From a virus, in the UHGV virus genome UHGV-0152719: a stretch of DNA of 11,057 bases. One strand, 5' to 3'. The notes beneath the pieces were generated by a model, which did not search any database, was not told where the DNA came from, and saw only the letters and a list, made by a program, of their open reading frames with translations. Position numbers and translations under genes: made by a program. Of this stretch, positions 4,787 to 10,846 are shown piece after piece. Each line of letters begins with the position of its first letter. Position 1 is the stretch's first letter.

Positions 4787-5014
4787 CTCCTCTACCTCTC
4801 TACCTAATCATCTTTCAGGTCAGTAATGGCGCGGCTTTCAGATGGGTAGAGGGCTTTCGGGGCCCTCTACCCATCCTCTACCCGCCCCTCACAAATGACC
4901 TTAATCATGGTGGAGGAGGTAGAGGGCTTTTATTTGCCTTCTACCTGGCCCTCTACCTGCTTATCATATTGAATAATATATATTTATTTTCTTTAGGTAG
5001 AGGAGGTAGAGGGC
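4787..5014. repeat. Iteron array with AT-rich core: putative origin of replication
   Basis: Ten copies of an 8-bp motif in both orientations: CCTCTACC at 4789, 4864, 4875, 4950; variants TCTCTACC 4797 and TTCTACC 4939; GGTAGAGG at 4845, 4918, 4996, 5006; three carry the longer form GGTAGAGGGCTTT. AT-rich stretch 4958-4995. Sits immediately 3' of the primase-helicase gene. Confidence 0.65.
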
Positions 5015-5026
5015 TTTTGTCTAAAA

Positions 5027-6781
5027 TTATAAAAACGCGTCGCAATCCTCTGTTGTTGTCACATTGGTTTGCGTAAGTCCTTTAACCCTGCGCGTTATAT
5101 ATTCACATCCGTAAACTTTCGCCGCTGGCTTCATGGCCTTGCTGAAATCAGCCACGTTTAGCGGCTTGCTTCTGCCTGCGTATGCCATAAACGCCAGATA
5201 GACGCGGTAAAGGCTGTTTCTGGTCGTGTACTTCACGGAATCGCCACCGCCACCCATCATCAGGCCGCGCGCTTCCTCCAGAAAATTCAGAAACTGGCAA
5301 AACTCAATAACCGGATCCGTCTGTTGCTTTATCGCCAGTGCTTCTTCACCGTCGCGCTGTTCAATCAACAAATGTCGCGCCTTTTCTGGATCAGCAAAGT
5401 TTGCCAGCAATCTGCGGATAATCACGGGGATTTCAGCCGCGACCTTCTCCGGTAAATCCTTGTCCTTTTCTGCCTCGCTAACGATATTGTCGAAGCGGAA
5501 AATTACGCGACGACGTGACACACCTCCGGCCCGTTCGGTGAATATCATCGGGTTATTGTTGGTAGCCAGCACCACCGCCCTGATTACCGCCGTAAAACGC
5601 TTTTCATATTTCGGGTTTATTTCCACGGGGTCGCCGCCCGTGATTTTCTTGATGCCCGTGCCTTCGCCTGTATATTTCGGCTGGTCAGCCAGGACGATAA
5701 GACGACTCCCGACAACCTGAGCACGCCCACCAGCATCATCAAGCGAAGTCATTTCAGCGCTTACCGTGTTCTGTTTCCCTGCCAGAAGGCTGGCTATGTG
5801 CGTGAATGTACTCTTTCCGCTCCCGCCGTCTCCGGTGGCCTCAATAAACATCTGCCAGTCGTACCGGTTCGCCATAATCATGTACAGCGCGGCACATATA
5901 CGCATCATCTTGCGTGGGTCTTTTCCGGCTGCGTGATCAAGCCATTTATGAAAGTTTGGCGCGTTGTCGCGGATGTTCTCCCCTGGTGCTGGTGGCGTGT
6001 ACTCAATGCCGTTGTGCGTGGTGATCCAGTTCTCCGGCGAGTGCGGGGAAAATTCCCCCGTTTTCAGATTAAGCACACCATTAGTGAACGGTAGCAAATC
6101 GCCAGACGGCTCGCCCATTGGTTCGGCAATAACTTTTAACGCTTCCACGGCGTTATTGATTGCGCGCTTGCTGAAAGTGGCCCTGTGCTCTGAATAGATC
6201 GCCACCATTTCGCGGCTAAGTTCCATTGTGCTGACCGGACACCATACCCCGCCGCGCCATACGTGAACGATTTCACTTTCAGGATGTACGCAAACGCCAT
6301 CAAAGCGATCGGCAAGCAACTGCGCGCGCTCACTGTCCGCCATCTGCGAAAGTTGCGCCTTTTGCTTTACCGGAAGCTCAATGACCAGACCATCAGAAAG
6401 ATTCTGGCGTTCACGGGCCAGATATTCGCGCCAGTTCTGCACCTCCTGGCCGTGCATACCCTCAGGATAAAAATTTGCATCCTGTACGCCTGCTGCCGCC
6501 AGCTTCTGACCAATCGCCTTTATCATTACAGGCGCAAGATATCCGGCCCTGTATATGCGTGCTGATTTTCGGCCTTCCGGCACAATTTGCAGATTATCCA
6601 GTTCGGATAGCTGCTGCTCCCCAAGCCACACAGGAGGCTCATTATCTCCGGCCATACGCGCATCATGTTCCTGCCATTGTTTCGCGTGTGCCCAGGCATC
6701 ACTACCCGCAAAAATAATGACTTCTGTTCCTTTGTGTTTTATGCCGCGTGACTGCTGTTTTACGTTCGGTGCCAGTTTCAT
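5027..6781 (-). CDS. Primase-helicase, phage/plasmid P4-alpha-like (Walker A GDGGSGKS)
   Basis: 584-aa ORF; Walker A motif TGDGGSGKST followed by helicase-like region; N-terminal primase-like portion; typical P4/PICI pri-rep size and position next to iterons; start ATG overlaps upstream gene stop. Confidence 0.85.
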   Translation of the reverse strand: MKLAPNVKQQSRGIKHKGTEVIIFAGSDAWAHAKQWQEHDARMAGDNEPPVWLGEQQLSELDNLQIVPEGRKSARIYRAGYLAPVMIKAIGQKLAAAGVQDANFYPEGMHGQEVQNWREYLARERQNLSDGLVIELPVKQKAQLSQMADSERAQLLADRFDGVCVHPESEIVHVWRGGVWCPVSTMELSREMVAIYSEHRATFSKRAINNAVEALKVIAEPMGEPSGDLLPFTNGVLNLKTGEFSPHSPENWITTHNGIEYTPPAPGENIRDNAPNFHKWLDHAAGKDPRKMMRICAALYMIMANRYDWQMFIEATGDGGSGKSTFTHIASLLAGKQNTVSAEMTSLDDAGGRAQVVGSRLIVLADQPKYTGEGTGIKKITGGDPVEINPKYEKRFTAVIRAVVLATNNNPMIFTERAGGVSRRRVIFRFDNIVSEAEKDKDLPEKVAAEIPVIIRRLLANFADPEKARHLLIEQRDGEEALAIKQQTDPVIEFCQFLNFLEEARGLMMGGGGDSVKYTTRNSLYRVYLAFMAYAGRSKPLNVADFSKAMKPAAKVYGCEYITRRVKGLTQTNVTTTEDCDAFL

Positions 6782-7324: not shown

Positions 7325-7505
7325 TGTATTGCTCTCCCTCCGCTATTAACCATGCCGACACATTGCCGGAAAGACGCGCCAGAAGACTGGAAATCGCGGA
7401 TATATCGGCATCCGTAAGTTTGTCAGGGTATACCTCAAGAAGGCGGCAAATGATTTCAACCTGCTGCGCTCTTTCCGCAATTTCGTTTAATGTAAACTCC
7501 TGCAT
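7314..7505 (-). CDS. Hypothetical protein (63 aa)
   Basis: ORF with AAGGGG SD about 9 nt upstream of ATG at 7505; overlaps the next gene by 11 nt. Confidence 0.45.
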   Translation of the reverse strand: MQEFTLNEIAERAQQVEIICRLLEVYPDKLTDADISAISSLLARLSGNVSAWLIAEGEQYNEQ

Positions 7506-7508
7506 TAA

Positions 7509-7691
7509 TTACACCCCTTTTAATTCATGTACTGCTGCAATAATTACATGTGATAAACCTGCTTTACCGGAATTACTGATTAGTGAATCAATCGCCGCTT
7601 GCATATTAACGGCCTTCACGTTCTGCGTTATTCCGATGGTGTAGCCGCGTTTATTAACTGCACGGGCAAATACGCGGAAGGTTTTAAGCAT
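7509..7691 (-). CDS. Hypothetical protein (60 aa)
   Basis: ATG at 7691 overlaps the stop of the upstream 65-aa gene (ATGCTTAA); operon context. Confidence 0.45.
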   Translation of the reverse strand: MLKTFRVFARAVNKRGYTIGITQNVKAVNMQAAIDSLISNSGKAGLSHVIIAAVHELKGV

Positions 7692-7881
7692 GACTCACTC
7701 CCTGGCGGATTTTTGCAGCGAATACAGCAACACAACCGGACGGGCAACGGCTACGCGCTTCGCGTTCCGTCCAGGCGGTTACGTGGATGATTTGAGATTC
7801 TCCGGCACTCAGTGCCAGAAAACGCCACACAAAGGCCGTTTGTGTGTGTACAAGGTGTGGTATATGATTTACAGCAACCAT
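7684..7881 (-). CDS. Hypothetical protein (65 aa), first gene of the minus-strand replication operon
   Basis: Corresponds to the C-terminal 65 codons of the 356-aa track ORF; internal ATG at 7881 is preceded by a canonical AGGAG SD (ctAGGAGccgttATG); the remaining upstream part of the long ORF is low-complexity and antisense to better-supported plus-strand genes. Confidence 0.5.
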   Translation of the reverse strand: MVAVNHIPHLVHTQTAFVWRFLALSAGESQIIHVTAWTEREARSRCPSGCVAVFAAKIRQGVSHA

Positions 7882-8071
7882 AACGGCTCCTAGTTTACGT
7901 TGTTGGTTAGACGCCCCGTATGTGTTCCCAGCACTGCGGGGCGTTGCTCTTTGTATTTCAACAATCCTTTCGGTGTGTTTCATGTTATGAGCACATGAAA
8001 CACACGTCAAGGCTTTTTGTATTTCTTTTTTTGTGTATACTGAAACACACCGATGATTAGGAGTTTCAGAA
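7882..8071. promoter_or_regulatory. Divergent promoter/operator region between the minus-strand replication operon and the plus-strand regulator genes
   Basis: Perfect 12-bp inverted repeat gtgtgtttcatg-(9 bp)-catgaaacacac at 7973-8005 plus a third half-site tgaaacacac at 8041-8050; minus-strand sigma70-like promoter TTGACG (8005-8010) -17 bp- TAACAT (7982-7987) overlapping the palindrome; plus-strand -10-like TATACT at 8036-8041; 8-bp stem hairpin acgccccg...cggggcgt (7911-7944) in the minus-strand leader. Confidence 0.5.
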
Positions 8072-8377
8072 ATGGCAACGGCTAACAAAAACGCAAAATC
8101 ACAACTGACAACTGTCAGAGTCCCACTAGATGTTATGCAAGGGATGGAATCCGTTAAGCTGGACGGTGAAAGCAATGCCGGATTTATCGTAACCGCCATG
8201 CGCGGAGAAATAGCCCGCCGCCAAGCAGAAGGCAGCGGAGAAAATCCCCTTGTGTCGTCACTGGATGCCCTGGCTAAGGTCGAACAAATCGGCATCAAAG
8301 CAGCCGAGGAGATCGGGCAACTCGTCACCGTCGCGCGTGAAGAACTCCAGCGACGCAAGGTCAAAGAGCATGAATAG
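8072..8377 (+). CDS. Putative ribbon-helix-helix-like DNA-binding protein (101 aa), candidate island regulator
   Basis: AGGAG SD 8 nt upstream of ATG; N-terminal TTVRVPLDVMQGMESVKLDGESNAGFIVTAMRGEIARRQ fits a beta-strand/helix/helix Arc/CopG-like pattern (inference only); divergent from the replication operon. Confidence 0.5.
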   Translation: MATANKNAKSQLTTVRVPLDVMQGMESVKLDGESNAGFIVTAMRGEIARRQAEGSGENPLVSSLDALAKVEQIGIKAAEEIGQLVTVAREELQRRKVKEHE

Positions 8378-8434
8378 CCAATATCAGCGCCATAGTTTGA
8401 GGAACGCAGGCGCATTGCTTTACAGGACAGCACC

Positions 8435-8614
8435 ATGAGCGACACAGAATCAACCAAAACACCATCACCAACTCGTAAGAGACGACGCAAAAATATAGCG
8501 CATGAACATGAATCAGAAAGATTCGCACCTTGTTCGTTTGCTCTTGAGAAATTCCTTAAAGAGCACAGGAAAAAGCTCTCGTTGCAAACCTTGGAACGAA
8601 CCAAATCTGACTGA
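8435..8614 (+). CDS. Hypothetical small basic protein (59 aa)
   Basis: Not in the supplied ORF track (below its apparent length cut-off); ATG at 8435 with AGGA-like SD upstream, in line with the preceding gene and followed by an intrinsic terminator; contains a KRRRK basic stretch. Confidence 0.4.
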   Translation: MSDTESTKTPSPTRKRRRKNIAHEHESERFAPCSFALEKFLKEHRKKLSLQTLERTKSD

Positions 8615-8670
8615 TCACATTGCCCACCAGCCGCAAATGTGGCATTGTTGGTGATGCTTTTGTTTTCCCT

Positions 8671-8700
8671 TGTTCCCACTGGCGACCCTTTTGCGGTCGC
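8671..8700 (+). terminator. Rho-independent terminator of the plus-strand two-gene unit
   Basis: ggcgacc-cttttgc-ggtcgcc stem-loop followed by tttgttttg. Confidence 0.6.
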
Positions 8701-8710
8701 CTTTGTTTTG

Positions 8711-9289
8711 TCACTGAATGCGGTTACCAAAGTAAAACTCAGGCTGATATTCACGTATCAGCCTTTTTTCTTCTTCCTCCAGCTCACGCTTTTTGCGCTT
8801 ACATGCCTGTAGCTCCCTCCCCTTCTCGCTGGCACTTATTTGATATTGCTCTTTACGGCGGGAAAAATCCTGTAATGCACCCCACGGGATACCATAAGCC
8901 CCCGTTTTTCTGATACCTGGTATCACATTTCTGAATACCCAGTTACTGAAACGATGAGCAAATGTGCCCGGCGTCGTTGCTTTGCGGCTGCGGGCTATTA
9001 GTTTGTAGAAACCTGACTCAGAGATAATTCTCATATTCTGATTTCCTCCTGGGGTGTAAGTTAAATTTACTCCCTTTTCATCATCATCAAGCATCTGCAA
9101 CGCCGTACGCGAATTGGTTAGTTCCAGCGCAGCACAAACATCTTTTGCAACAAACCACGGATCGCCGTTCAGATACACCACACGAACGTTCACACTATCA
9201 AAGCGCAGAACGACGAGATCACGAATATCGCAGAATTTTTTCACTGGACGAGCGTACCCCTTGCCCGTCACGGCAATATTTTTATTCAT
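8711..9289 (-). CDS. Bro-N domain protein (phage antirepressor-like), 192 aa
   Basis: N-terminal region VVLRFDSVNVRVVYLNGDPWFVAKDVCAALEL...LQMLDDDEKGV matches the Bro-N/antirepressor N-terminal domain pattern; C-terminal charged coiled-coil-like tail. Confidence 0.75.
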   Translation of the reverse strand: MNKNIAVTGKGYARPVKKFCDIRDLVVLRFDSVNVRVVYLNGDPWFVAKDVCAALELTNSRTALQMLDDDEKGVNLTYTPGGNQNMRIISESGFYKLIARSRKATTPGTFAHRFSNWVFRNVIPGIRKTGAYGIPWGALQDFSRRKEQYQISASEKGRELQACKRKKRELEEEEKRLIREYQPEFYFGNRIQ

Positions 9290-9345: not shown

Positions 9346-9603
9346 TTATTGCTGTTTTGTTTTTCCAGGTTTCCATCCAGGATGCCACTCACCACGGATC
9401 CATGCCTGAACCTCTGAAAGTCGATACCCTGCAGCACGTTCACCGATCTTGATACGTCGCGGGAATTTACCTGCCTGCTCCATTTTCCAGCGTGTTGAGT
9501 TTGCCAGCGTGGTAAGTGCTATGCACTCTTTTTCACGAATGAACCGATCAATGTCCTTCATTGTGCGCAAATCGTTTTCATCAACAAGAGAATAAATTGC
9601 CAT
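9346..9603 (-). CDS. alpA: AlpA-family transcriptional regulator / excisionase-like protein
   Basis: 85 aa with HTH IALTTLANSTRWKMEQAGKFPRRIKIGERAAGYRLSEVQAWI typical of AlpA (prophage CP4-57 regulatory protein family); AAGAGG SD; immediately downstream of the integrase. Confidence 0.8.
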   Translation of the reverse strand: MAIYSLVDENDLRTMKDIDRFIREKECIALTTLANSTRWKMEQAGKFPRRIKIGERAAGYRLSEVQAWIRGEWHPGWKPGKTKQQ

Positions 9604-9604
9604 A

Positions 9605-10846
9605 TCACACCACCTCTTTATTAAGCTCGATAACGTTGTTGTTAAATCCTGCTATCGTATTAAGGTAATTAACCCACATATTAAGCACCTCAAGTTTTTT
9701 CTTTATATGCCTGCTTTTATTGTAAACACCAGCAACCCCTTTCACTTTATGACCTAAAAGAAGTTCGACAATATAAGGATCCGCCCCCATATCATTAAGC
9801 GTAGTGGAAAATGTGCGCCTGAAATCATGTATGCACCACAAGCCATTAGTATCATGACCAAGACGCCTGCATATTCTGTTTGCAGCCCCTGTTATTGTCG
9901 CCCTTTGCAAAGCACAACCGACAACATAACCGCAATTTTTTGTTTCTGCGTAAAGATTAACGATCCATTGTTTTATTCCGTCAGGAACAGGCCTTACTAT
10001 AGCCTCCTTGTTTTTGCTGTGCTCTTTTGGGACTGTCCATACCCAGTTTTTTAAATCCCATTCGTCCCAGGTGGATAGCCTCGCCTCCTGCTGTCGGCAA
10101 CCAAACACCAGGCAGATAACCATTATTCTTCGGTTATATATTGATGACAGAGTTAGCAAATTATTACCGTAAGCATAAGACCATACATCAGCGGTTTCAT
10201 TGATATTAAGAACGCGATCCCTTATACCGGATGAGCGCCCGACATAACTTACGTTAATATCTCCAAAGGGATCGCACGCGATGTATTGCCTGACGCGACA
10301 AAAACGCAACGCCTGTTTGATATCAAGAAAAATTGCACCAGACATAACAGGCGCATTTTTTTTGATCCTGTCAAAGACGGTAAGCCATGTGTGTAATTTG
10401 CACTGTTCTATAGCCATATCACCGATATAGGGGAAGATATGCTTTTCAAATCGTTTTATTAAATATTCATGCTCTTTTCTGGCTGTTGTGGCGTGATTGT
10501 CGTACCAGTAAAACAGCGCATCCCTTACGGTCACTGGTTGCATAGTTTTTTCGGCAGCAAGTTTTATTTGCCTGCGGGGGTCCAGATTTTCAGCCAGCCA
10601 TTCACGGCACTGATCACGCATGCGCCTGGCCGTTGCAAGAGACATGTCAGGATAGCGACCAAGTGTAAGCCATACCGGAGGGGATTCCCTGCCACCAAGA
10701 CGATAGTAAAAAACAAAGCTGATCCCCCCAACCATGCTTACACGCACAGACAACCCGCGCCCATCCGCTATTGTTTTTTGTTTGTCCTGCCGTTTTCCGA
10801 CAAGACTCTTTAACAGTTTGTCACTGAGTTTGTTTTCAATAGCCAT
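9605..10846 (-). CDS. int: Tyrosine site-specific integrase, P4-type
   Basis: 413 aa; N-terminal P4-integrase-like arm-binding region (MAIENKLSDKLLKSL...GRGLSVRV); catalytic-domain motifs including HDFRRTFST and the GVAGVYNKS tyrosine region; GAGGG SD upstream. Confidence 0.9.
   Translation of the reverse strand: MAIENKLSDKLLKSLVGKRQDKQKTIADGRGLSVRVSMVGGISFVFYYRLGGRESPPVWLTLGRYPDMSLATARRMRDQCREWLAENLDPRRQIKLAAEKTMQPVTVRDALFYWYDNHATTARKEHEYLIKRFEKHIFPYIGDMAIEQCKLHTWLTVFDRIKKNAPVMSGAIFLDIKQALRFCRVRQYIACDPFGDINVSYVGRSSGIRDRVLNINETADVWSYAYGNNLLTLSSIYNRRIMVICLVFGCRQQEARLSTWDEWDLKNWVWTVPKEHSKNKEAIVRPVPDGIKQWIVNLYAETKNCGYVVGCALQRATITGAANRICRRLGHDTNGLWCIHDFRRTFSTTLNDMGADPYIVELLLGHKVKGVAGVYNKSRHIKKKLEVLNMWVNYLNTIAGFNNNVIELNKEVV

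Follow-up and report, generated by a model that had tools for sequence, protein, structure and literature searches.

The stretch of DNA analyzed here, UHGV virus genome UHGV-0152719 (11,057 nucleotides; hereafter, the window), is, by its gene content and its ends, a Gram-negative phage-inducible chromosomal island (PICI) of the helper-embedded type, and the present analysis concerns its control region, which includes a 190-bp gap (7882-8071) between two diverging genes and the beginning of one of these genes. Searches against Pfam and NCBIfam matched the proteins of the window to an integrase, AlpA, a Bro-N protein, an Icd-like protein, DUF4222 and a P4-type primase, and the window shows the hallmarks of Gram-negative PICIs, namely, an integrase together with AlpA, a Bro zone, a P4-type primase, a short late zone and a length of ~11 kb. 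Tommasini, Mageeney and Williams divided these islands into Integration, Bro, Replication and Late zones and placed the immunity functions in the Bro zone (PMC10111431). An island of Escherichia coli CFSAN018748 (CP028192) that is 98% identical to the window, and also has genes for a major capsid protein, a decoration protein, a helix-turn-helix (HTH) protein and TerS, splits the portal gene of a lambdoid prophage, and both ends of the window align to the corresponding junctions. The match of the ends to these junctions, together with the gene set, places the window in the helper-embedded class of PMC10111431.

On one side of the gap, a minus-strand gene that starts with the ATG at 7881 encodes the Icd-like protein (63.7 bits against NF033153, with a cut-off of 25; the RefSeq annotation of relatives agrees). 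This gene is followed on the same strand by three small open reading frames (ORFs), the DUF4222 gene, the primase gene and a gene for a single-stranded DNA-binding protein (SSB). On the other side, a plus-strand gene encodes a protein of the YlcI/YnfO family (63.3 bits against NF041551, with a cut-off of 30, over residues 9-50), for which no function is described in the literature searched. Together with the next gene, orf59, it converges on the minus-strand genes for the Bro-N protein, AlpA and the integrase (Table 1). Part of the control region is found in about 1200 of the 5426 complete E. coli genomes.

Table 1. Genes and predicted control elements of the window that are discussed in the text
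Feature	Position	Strand	Description
P4-type primase gene	5027-6781	minus	
Icd-like gene (icd)	7684-7881	minus	65 aa, host cell division inhibitor family (NF033153); first gene of the putatively controlled operon
Candidate antisense-RNA promoter	7840-7868	plus	TTGTGT (7840-7845), 17 nt, TATGAT (7863-7868); inside the first icd codons
SL1	7876-7908	plus	Predicted hairpin; 5' arm complementary to the icd start codon; loop contains an anti-Shine-Dalgarno sequence (CUCC)
SL2	7910-7945	plus	Predicted 13-pair hairpin; conserved, with plus-strand selection
U-rich tail	7946-7960	plus	GCTCTTTGTATTTCA; follows SL2; probable 3' end of the antisense RNA
O1, putative operator site	7973-7983		GTGTGTTTCAT; overlaps the -10 box (7982-7987) and the predicted start (~7975) of P(icd)
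P(icd), predicted promoter	7982-8010	minus	TTGACG, 17 nt, TAACAT; serves the operon of the Icd-like gene, small genes, DUF4222 and primase
O2, putative operator site	7995-8005		ATGAAACACAC; inverted relative to O1; occupies the promoter spacer, next to the -35 box
-10 box of the regulator promoter	8036-8041	plus	TATACT; follows a T-rich tract; no good -35 box
O3, putative operator site	8040-8050		CTGAAACACAC; begins inside or right after the TATACT box of the regulator gene
YlcI/YnfO-family gene	8072-8377	plus	101 aa; NCBIfam NF041551
orf59	8435-8614	plus	Second gene of the regulator operon; counterparts follow ylcI-like genes in other islands
Intrinsic terminator of the ylcI-orf59 operon	8681-8710	plus	Canonical; GGCGACCCTTTTGCGGTCGCC then TTTGTTTTGT
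Bro-N protein gene	8711-9289	minus	
AlpA gene	9346-9603	minus	
Integrase gene	9605-10846	minus	

An earlier note, made from the letters of this DNA alone, had pointed to a perfect inverted repeat in the gap, a third copy of its arm next to a plus-strand -10 box, and a minus-strand promoter, and all three were recovered in the present analysis. The inverted repeat (GTGTGTTTCATG at 7973-7984 and CATGAAACACAC at 7994-8005, with 9 nt in between) is actually one base longer on each side, with 13-nt arms (7973-7985 and 7993-8005) and a 7-nt spacer. An arm of at least 12 nt with a spacer of at most 30 nt arose in only one of 5000 dinucleotide-preserving shuffles of 7882-8071 (P ~0.0002). The 10-mer TGAAACACAC, counted together with its complement, occurs three times in the 11-kb window, each time inside the gap; the third copy (8041-8050) directly follows the plus-strand TATACT and, with its flank (8041-8053), is the reverse complement of TCGGTGTGTTTCA (7970-7982) at 13 of 13 positions. 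The minus-strand promoter, with TTGACG at 8010-8005 and TAACAT at 7987-7982, is the only sigma-70-like match that a promoter scan yielded within 7400-8700. The proposal that the operator overlaps the promoter of the replication operon is supported, with a refinement: sites O1 and O2 do cover the minus-strand promoter, P(icd), whereas the plus-strand TATACT promoter serves the regulator gene and not the operon. A direct repeat, GCTCTTTGTATTTC / GCTTTTTGTATTTC (7946-7959 and 8012-8025), flanks the O1-O2 pair; its TTTGTAT is shared with Xenorhabdus and Photorhabdus loci of the window's class but not with other classes. This repeat was dropped as a candidate further site given that it is not conserved outside the closest class.

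The control region was compared with those found in E. coli genomes, in a search of one genome per species across bacteria with the YlcI-like protein as the query, and in look-ups of individual proteins. Three sites of the form GTG-N5-CA(C) are present at fixed places in about 30 related islands from 10 genera, of which Xenorhabdus, Photorhabdus, Enterobacter, Pectobacterium, Dickeya, Citrobacter, Morganella and Phytobacter came from the species-wide search, and Serratia and E. coli from the look-ups. This layout holds at loci that carry a YlcI-like gene. In each site, the outer bases are constant and pseudo-symmetric, and the center is variable. O3 directly follows the -10 box of the regulator gene (TATACT, TATAAT, TATATT, TATGAT or CATACT), O2 abuts an opposite-strand TTGAnn -35 box at every related locus, whatever the operator class, and O1 lies over or just downstream of the -10 box and start of P(icd), at 22, 25 or 35 bp from O2. 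In the window, the O1-O2 distance is 22 bp, center to center, and O3 is located 45 bp from O2, a distance that is constant across the classes. The same O1 core occupies the same place in the relatives of the window's class (L006-L011 and L039).

The earlier note had interpreted the palindrome as an operator bound by a dimer. The location of conserved sites at promoters bears out the operator part of this proposal, but the arms are not the two half-sites of one dimer because each arm is a complete GTG-N5-CA(C) site. In the QQLNARF, KRFDVRV and LQVSVRL classes (named here after residues 11-17 of the respective regulators), all three sites have the same orientation, such that O1 and O2 are direct repeats, which indicates that the palindrome of the window consists of two separate dimer sites that happen to be inverted. 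Thus, by comparison across classes, the control region is built of three dimer sites rather than one palindrome. These observations also bear on the possibility that the palindrome functions as an RNA hairpin, acting either within a plus-strand transcript, as a terminator or attenuator, or within the operon mRNA, as a 5'-terminal structure. Compatible with this possibility are the 13-bp stem and its 7-nt loop, a T-rich run located 8 nt further along the plus strand, and weak, chance-level matches to hairpin RNA families, including Phe_leader. Direct repeats, however, are unable to pair, and furthermore, the O1-O2 spacing varies, the third copy belongs to a second promoter at a distance of 45 bp, the stem and the T-run are not contiguous, and the inner bases of the stem are not conserved within the class. 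Indeed, in the window's own class (Xenorhabdus, Photorhabdus, Serratia), only ~9-11 bp per arm are kept (GTGTGTTTC / GAAACACAC), and the inner CATG(T) and the spacer vary. We therefore rejected the RNA hairpin, which we regard as extremely improbable, the decisive fact being the direct orientation of the sites in other classes.

The comparison of the sites with the regulators suggests which protein reads the three operator sites. The YlcI-like family is ~70% identical overall, and its most variable stretch is residues 11-17, which immediately precede an invariant R-x-P and the first helix and occupy the position of the beta-strand with which ribbon-helix-helix (RHH) proteins read DNA. The central bases of O1, O2 and O3 change together, in step with these residues: QLTTVRV, the strand of the window's regulator, goes with the site core GTGTGTTTCA, QMTTVRI with GTGTATTTCAC, QQLNARF with GTGAATCGCAC, QSLTARI with GTGTAAG, KRFDVRV with GTGTCGGACAC, LQVSVRL with GTGAACACCAC, QMKNIRF with GTGTATATACA, and AKKNIRF with TGTGCGCACA. 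Within each class, the core is identical across genera and, in a cross-matrix, 9-mers taken from the site at the regulator promoter are found again around the icd promoter mainly within their own class. Three classes that were fetched later served as a forward test, and all three fitted: KQISIRI came with a new core, TGAATCACA, at all the expected positions, QIKNVRV with another new core, GTGTG(C/T)ATT, and QLFTVRV, which is one residue away from the window's strand, with the window's core. Overall, the beta-strand residues and the central 5 bp of each site appear to have co-diversified into at least nine specificity classes.

This comparison with the site cores covered the YlcI-like protein and AlpA. 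AlpA is the only regulator of Gram-negative PICIs with experimental support (PMC6092414), and orf59 is conserved and co-transcribed with the YlcI-like gene, so that the operators might be real but bound by AlpA, the Bro-N protein, the orf59 product, or a helper or host factor, with the YlcI-like protein playing another role. The sequences speak against this possibility in three ways. First, AlpA is identical in islands L004 and L028 and 98% identical in L002, yet the respective sites (GGTAATTACC, AGGTGACCAC and GTGAATCGCAC) have unrelated cores, which excludes AlpA as the specific binder. Second, the icd gene and leader of L004 are identical to those of the window, but the divergent regulator and the sites are different. 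Third, the cores follow the class of the YlcI-like beta-strand across genera. Accordingly, we consider it quite unlikely that another factor reads these sites. The suggestion that the RHH-like product of 8072-8377 is the binding protein is thus strengthened by the conserved three-site layout, the covariation between core and beta-strand (including the three forward cases), the structural model of the protein described below, and the exclusion of AlpA.

Several islands (L004, at ~2590-2620, L027, L030, the second island of L032, L005 and L028) share the icd leader, lack a YlcI gene and contain another small RHH-like divergent gene. In several of these, the alternative regulator contains the motif PxFxxRLxxxL followed by ...SLAxWIKRxLRKEL. 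The start codon of the divergent gene in these islands overlaps the -35 box of the icd promoter (TTGACA-T), which suggests a leaderless mRNA. Each of these islands has repeated palindromes of its own, such as two copies of GGTAATTACC or of AGGTGACCAC.

The AlphaFold2 model of the window's regulator consists of a beta-strand followed by helices at residues 19-28 and 35-55, that is, an N-terminal strand and two helices within ~45 residues, as in RHH domains; residues ~10-55 are predicted to form such a domain, and residues 59-100, a long C-terminal helix. Structural comparison of this model yielded RHH proteins as neighbors, including TacA, Rv0298, CopA(SO), the RHH domain of PutA, NikR, MazE7, StnY and AmrZ, and some UniRef entries of the YlcI-like homologues are named 'Arc-like DNA binding domain'. 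The assignment of the YlcI/YnfO protein to the RHH DNA-binding proteins is thus supported by predicted structure rather than by curated sequence models. Short forms of the regulator (59-64 aa) lack the C-terminal helix and retain all three sites. In the C-terminal part of the long form (8231-8330, residues ~54-86), there is a helix-hairpin-helix (HhH)-like motif, L..VE.IG.KAAEEI; a sequence profile search of PDB gave only a weak match of residues 45-86 to the HhH domain of Hef (E 0.003), AlphaFold2 renders the region as one continuous helix, and it is entirely missing from the short forms.

The best structural neighbors of the regulator, TacA, Rv0298 and MazE7, are RHH antitoxins, the RHH gene comes first in a two-gene operon, and there is a weak Pfam match to PSK_trans_fac, all of which would fit an addiction or toxin-antitoxin-like module, where the RHH protein autoregulates its own operon only and any effect on the icd-primase operon is incidental. 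However, O1 and O2 are located upstream of the regulator's own promoter and, in every class, coincide with the -10 box, start and spacer of the divergent P(icd). The short-form loci, too, keep the complete set of sites, and the orf59 product has no similarity to any toxin family. A toxin-antitoxin module of this kind therefore seems very unlikely, and we retain the reading of the YlcI/YnfO protein as a regulator of both promoters. The orf59 product, a basic protein that matches no Pfam or NCBIfam family, has homologues (25-58% identity, with a common P.xF.L..FL motif) encoded directly downstream of YlcI-like genes in other E. coli islands.

A second candidate control layer, which the earlier note had missed, is located between P(icd) and icd, where the plus strand can form two hairpins, SL1 and SL2 (7876-7945). 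DNA searches recovered the surrounding region (7860-7954) from hundreds of E. coli genomes and from islands that have other regulators; its conservation thus extends well outside the YlcI class. Across 28 distinct sequences, the pairs of SL2 are kept in 99.4% of the alignment cells, with compensatory changes in 5 pairs; none of 500 shuffles reached the observed score, and no register shift came near it. When read as plus-strand RNA, the alignment of SL2 contains 311 Watson-Crick pairs, 50 G-U pairs and 2 non-pairs, compared with 311, 0 and 52, respectively, on the minus (mRNA) strand. Given that the G-U pairs of the plus strand would be C-A mismatches on the minus strand, where there are 52 C-A or other mismatches in total, the structure has been selected on the plus strand, and we accordingly rejected its interpretation as a structure of the mRNA leader. 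The energies point in the same direction: the mean stability of the SL2 alignment is -23.4 kcal/mol for the plus strand vs -17.2 for the minus strand, the two-hairpin fold is found in all 28 loci (-30 to -40 kcal/mol vs -17 to -29), and an 86-nt stretch has z = -3.8 as plus-strand RNA vs -0.8 as mRNA leader.

Putative signals for the synthesis of such an RNA flank the hairpins. A -10-like hexamer, TAnnnT, is found at a distance of exactly 10 nt from the start codon of icd in about 20 loci (TATGAT in the window; TATGCT, TAGACT, TACACT or TAAACT elsewhere). Codon 6 of icd in these loci specifies His, Ser, Cys or Phe and invariably ends in T, even though C in this position would leave the amino acid unchanged. 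In the class in which only 4 nt separate the hexamer from the start codon, the leader is extended by 7 nt, such that the distance from the hexamer to the hairpins is kept; the -10 box is about 36 nt upstream. SL2 is followed by a tail with, on average, 5.8 T in 12 nt (at least 5 T in 28 of 33 loci). Taken together, these features suggest that the structure may well be a cis-antisense RNA of ~80 nt spanning the icd start codon together with the Shine-Dalgarno sequence and the leader; the existence and the ends of this RNA, as well as its effect on translation, are what we infer from the comparison of the loci.

Alternatively, the hairpins might not belong to a separate small RNA but rather to the 5' part of a longer transcript running into the regulator gene, similar to that from lambda PRE, or they could be a structure of single-stranded DNA involved in replication or packaging. 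An imperfect U-tail that is weak in 5 of 33 loci would agree with the former, whereas the tolerance of G-T pairs in DNA hairpins and the presence of primase and SSB genes in the island would agree with the latter. The fixed distance of the -10 box, the loop that exposes an anti-Shine-Dalgarno sequence and the tail with 5-8 T in most loci argue against these possibilities, and the predicted origin repeats are elsewhere (4841-4958, downstream of the primase gene). We consider both versions fairly unlikely and favor the cis-antisense RNA.

At the gathering threshold, Rfam detected no C4, isrK or other small RNA family (RF01695 and RF01394 included) in the whole window, and a search of 7650-8150 on both strands with E values up to 10 gave only chance hairpin matches, without C4 or isrK. 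In view of the lack of any Rfam match to C4, CI or isrK, homology to the immunity RNAs of P1 and P4 was dropped. The leader and hairpin region has no match in the phage collection, and no paper describing this antisense RNA was found in the literature searched. The Icd-like protein has a single match in the phage collection, to an induced 16.5-kb satellite (L034; LR881103, 'Escherichia phage vB_KppS-Ant'). In this satellite, the Icd-like domain is fused to the end of a larger ORF, and the same leader hairpins are found together with a TTGACG promoter that has a palindrome of its own, GTGTACCCCCAC...GTGGGGGTGCAC. Thus, one element with this leader is on record as an induced particle. On the minus strand of the window, 35 nt into the icd coding sequence, there is also an 8-pair hairpin (7826-7846; CACACAAACGGCCTTTGTGTG then GCGTTTTCTG) that was seen only in this Icd class and overlaps the -35 box of the proposed antisense promoter; in the absence of icd translation, this hairpin could act as a terminator.

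Taken as a whole, region 7840-8071 probably functions as a two-layer immunity switch of a Gram-negative PICI. In the first layer, dimers of the YlcI/YnfO-family protein would bind the three 11-bp GTG-N5-CA(C) sites, and it seems likely that, in this way, a small RHH repressor keeps the replication operon off. O1 and O2 cover the start, the -10 box and the spacer of a promoter with a 17-bp spacing, so that repression is expected, and it is from the positions of the sites that we infer repression rather than activation. Occupancy of O1 and O2 would exclude RNA polymerase from P(icd) and silence the replication and late functions, and O3, located over the -10 box and start of the regulator's own promoter, would provide for negative autoregulation. 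In the second layer, the promoter inside icd would produce a plus-strand RNA of ~80 nt with two hairpins and a U-rich tail. Being fully complementary to the 5' leader, the Shine-Dalgarno sequence and the start codon of the operon, this RNA would pair with the mRNA and block the translation of icd, by analogy with P22 sar and P1 c4. The untranslated, C/A-rich leader would then allow premature, probably Rho-dependent, termination of the whole operon, including the primase and late genes. The helper phage might lift the block through an anti-repressor encoded in the alpA-bro operon or through read-through from this operon that is driven by AlpA.

Several observations weigh against this scheme. 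In the published model of Gram-negative PICIs, regulation occurs through activation by AlpA, and no global repressor has been identified (PMC6092414). For the regulator, none of the Pfam RHH families reaches the threshold, PSK_trans_fac being found below it in 18 of 27 family members (best E 0.0011). In an hhalign comparison with Arc, the strand and helix A are in register, but the probability is only 10%, and Foldseek gave no match. The island L029 has the QQLNARF strand and yet the core GTGAATACCA, without a clear O3; hence, the strand alone does not fix the specificity, and other residues contribute. Furthermore, given the physical linkage of the regulator gene to the sites, some of the covariation might be due to common ancestry; against this stands the concerted change at three separate sites, which does not, however, prove the identity of the binding protein. 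The proposed antisense promoter matches the consensus at 8 of 12 positions, below the threshold of the scan, has a weak -35 box and is embedded in coding sequence, and the U-tract begins 3-4 nt past the stem and is poor in 5 of 33 loci.

The closest parallel to the proposed switch is immI of phage P22 (Mnt, Arc; Pant/Pmnt; sar). In both cases, small RHH repressors would act at operators overlapping divergent promoters, one protein would repress a lytic-type operon and regulate its own synthesis, and a short cis-antisense RNA, whose promoter faces the main promoter, would cover the ribosome-binding site; the long-form regulator, like Mnt, has a C-terminal helix after the RHH domain. There is, however, no detectable sequence homology (the comparison with Arc is weak, and the region is found in no phage of the collection), three dispersed single-dimer sites replace one operator of 17-21 bp, the controlled operon encodes an Icd-like protein and a primase rather than an antirepressor, and the element is a satellite.

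The resemblance to immI of P1 and P7 (c4, icd, ant) lies in the operon, with a gene of the Icd family in the first position and its translation start as the putative target of an RNA repressor. In 1992, Biere, Citron and Schuster reportedly found that, in P1, a block of icd translation leads to Rho-dependent termination upstream of the downstream genes. The C4 RNA, however, is encoded on the same strand and acts in trans, whereas the RNA proposed here is encoded on the opposite strand, the Rfam models of C4 and isrK do not match the window, and P1 lacks a layer consisting of an RHH protein and operators.

With the immunity region of P4 (PLE inside eta, CI RNA with seqA/seqC, kil), the region shares its position after alpA/vis and a Bro-type gene and before a Kil/Icd-like gene and primase, as well as the predicted silence of the replication operon in the integrated state (PMC10111431). 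In P4, however, the promoter is constitutive, there is no protein repressor, and silencing relies on premature termination and a processed RNA of the sense strand; the window has an inserted divergent two-gene module that encodes a putative protein repressor, the RNA would be antisense, and Rfam detected no homologues of CI or seqA in the window. Finally, as with Stl/Rpr of the Gram-positive PICIs (SaPIs), the repressor gene would be divergent from the excision/replication operon, and the satellite would be silent until a helper phage acts (PMC6092414), but Stl repressors are large HTH proteins released by binding helper proteins, unlike the 59-104-aa RHH protein described here.

Several features outside the control region are relevant for the life cycle of the island. 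Downstream of the bro gene on the minus strand (8711-9289 down to 8072), there is no terminator-like site, so that alpA-bro transcripts, antisense to orf59 and ylcI, could extend as far as the icd promoter region, a possible route for induction driven by the helper or by AlpA. Just downstream of the primase gene, there is a perfect 14-nt inverted repeat, GATGGGTAGAGGGC, with a 7-nt spacer (4841-4875) and a second, 11-nt inverted repeat (4917-4958), with a shared GGTAGAGGG motif; as in other PICIs, these repeats probably represent the replication origin. Between the TerS and HTH genes, a 72-nt stretch (1970-2041) is 100% identical to a sequence upstream of the Nu1-like DNA-packaging gene of the helper prophage (CP028192; L001, 16073-16144), and probably represents a copy of the cos site through which the island gains access to the packaging machinery of the helper.

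A literature search on YlcI/YnfO, RHH proteins in PICIs, Icd-like genes in satellites, and antisense RNA in combination with icd found no description of this switch. The principles are classical, resembling immI of P22 and P1, and what appears to be new is their presence and modular diversification in Gram-negative PICIs, which had been taken to lack a repressor. More broadly, many of these islands might have small RHH master repressors, with beta-strand and operator co-diversified into heteroimmune classes, on top of a universal antisense RNA that gates the Icd-like/primase operon, a tentative generalization that falls somewhat short of being probable. Gram-negative PICIs are widespread and move virulence and defence genes, and their induction is currently explained only by AlpA. 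If the switch proposed here is real, the model with AlpA as the sole activator would be incomplete, and the YlcI/YnfO family would gain its first functional hypothesis. Furthermore, there would be a concrete repressor-operator pair with natural specificity variants for the study of DNA recognition by RHH proteins, and the islands could be sorted into immunity classes from sequence. A second, RNA-based brake on the annotated cell-division inhibitor would, in addition, account for the tolerance of a toxic first gene while the island is integrated.

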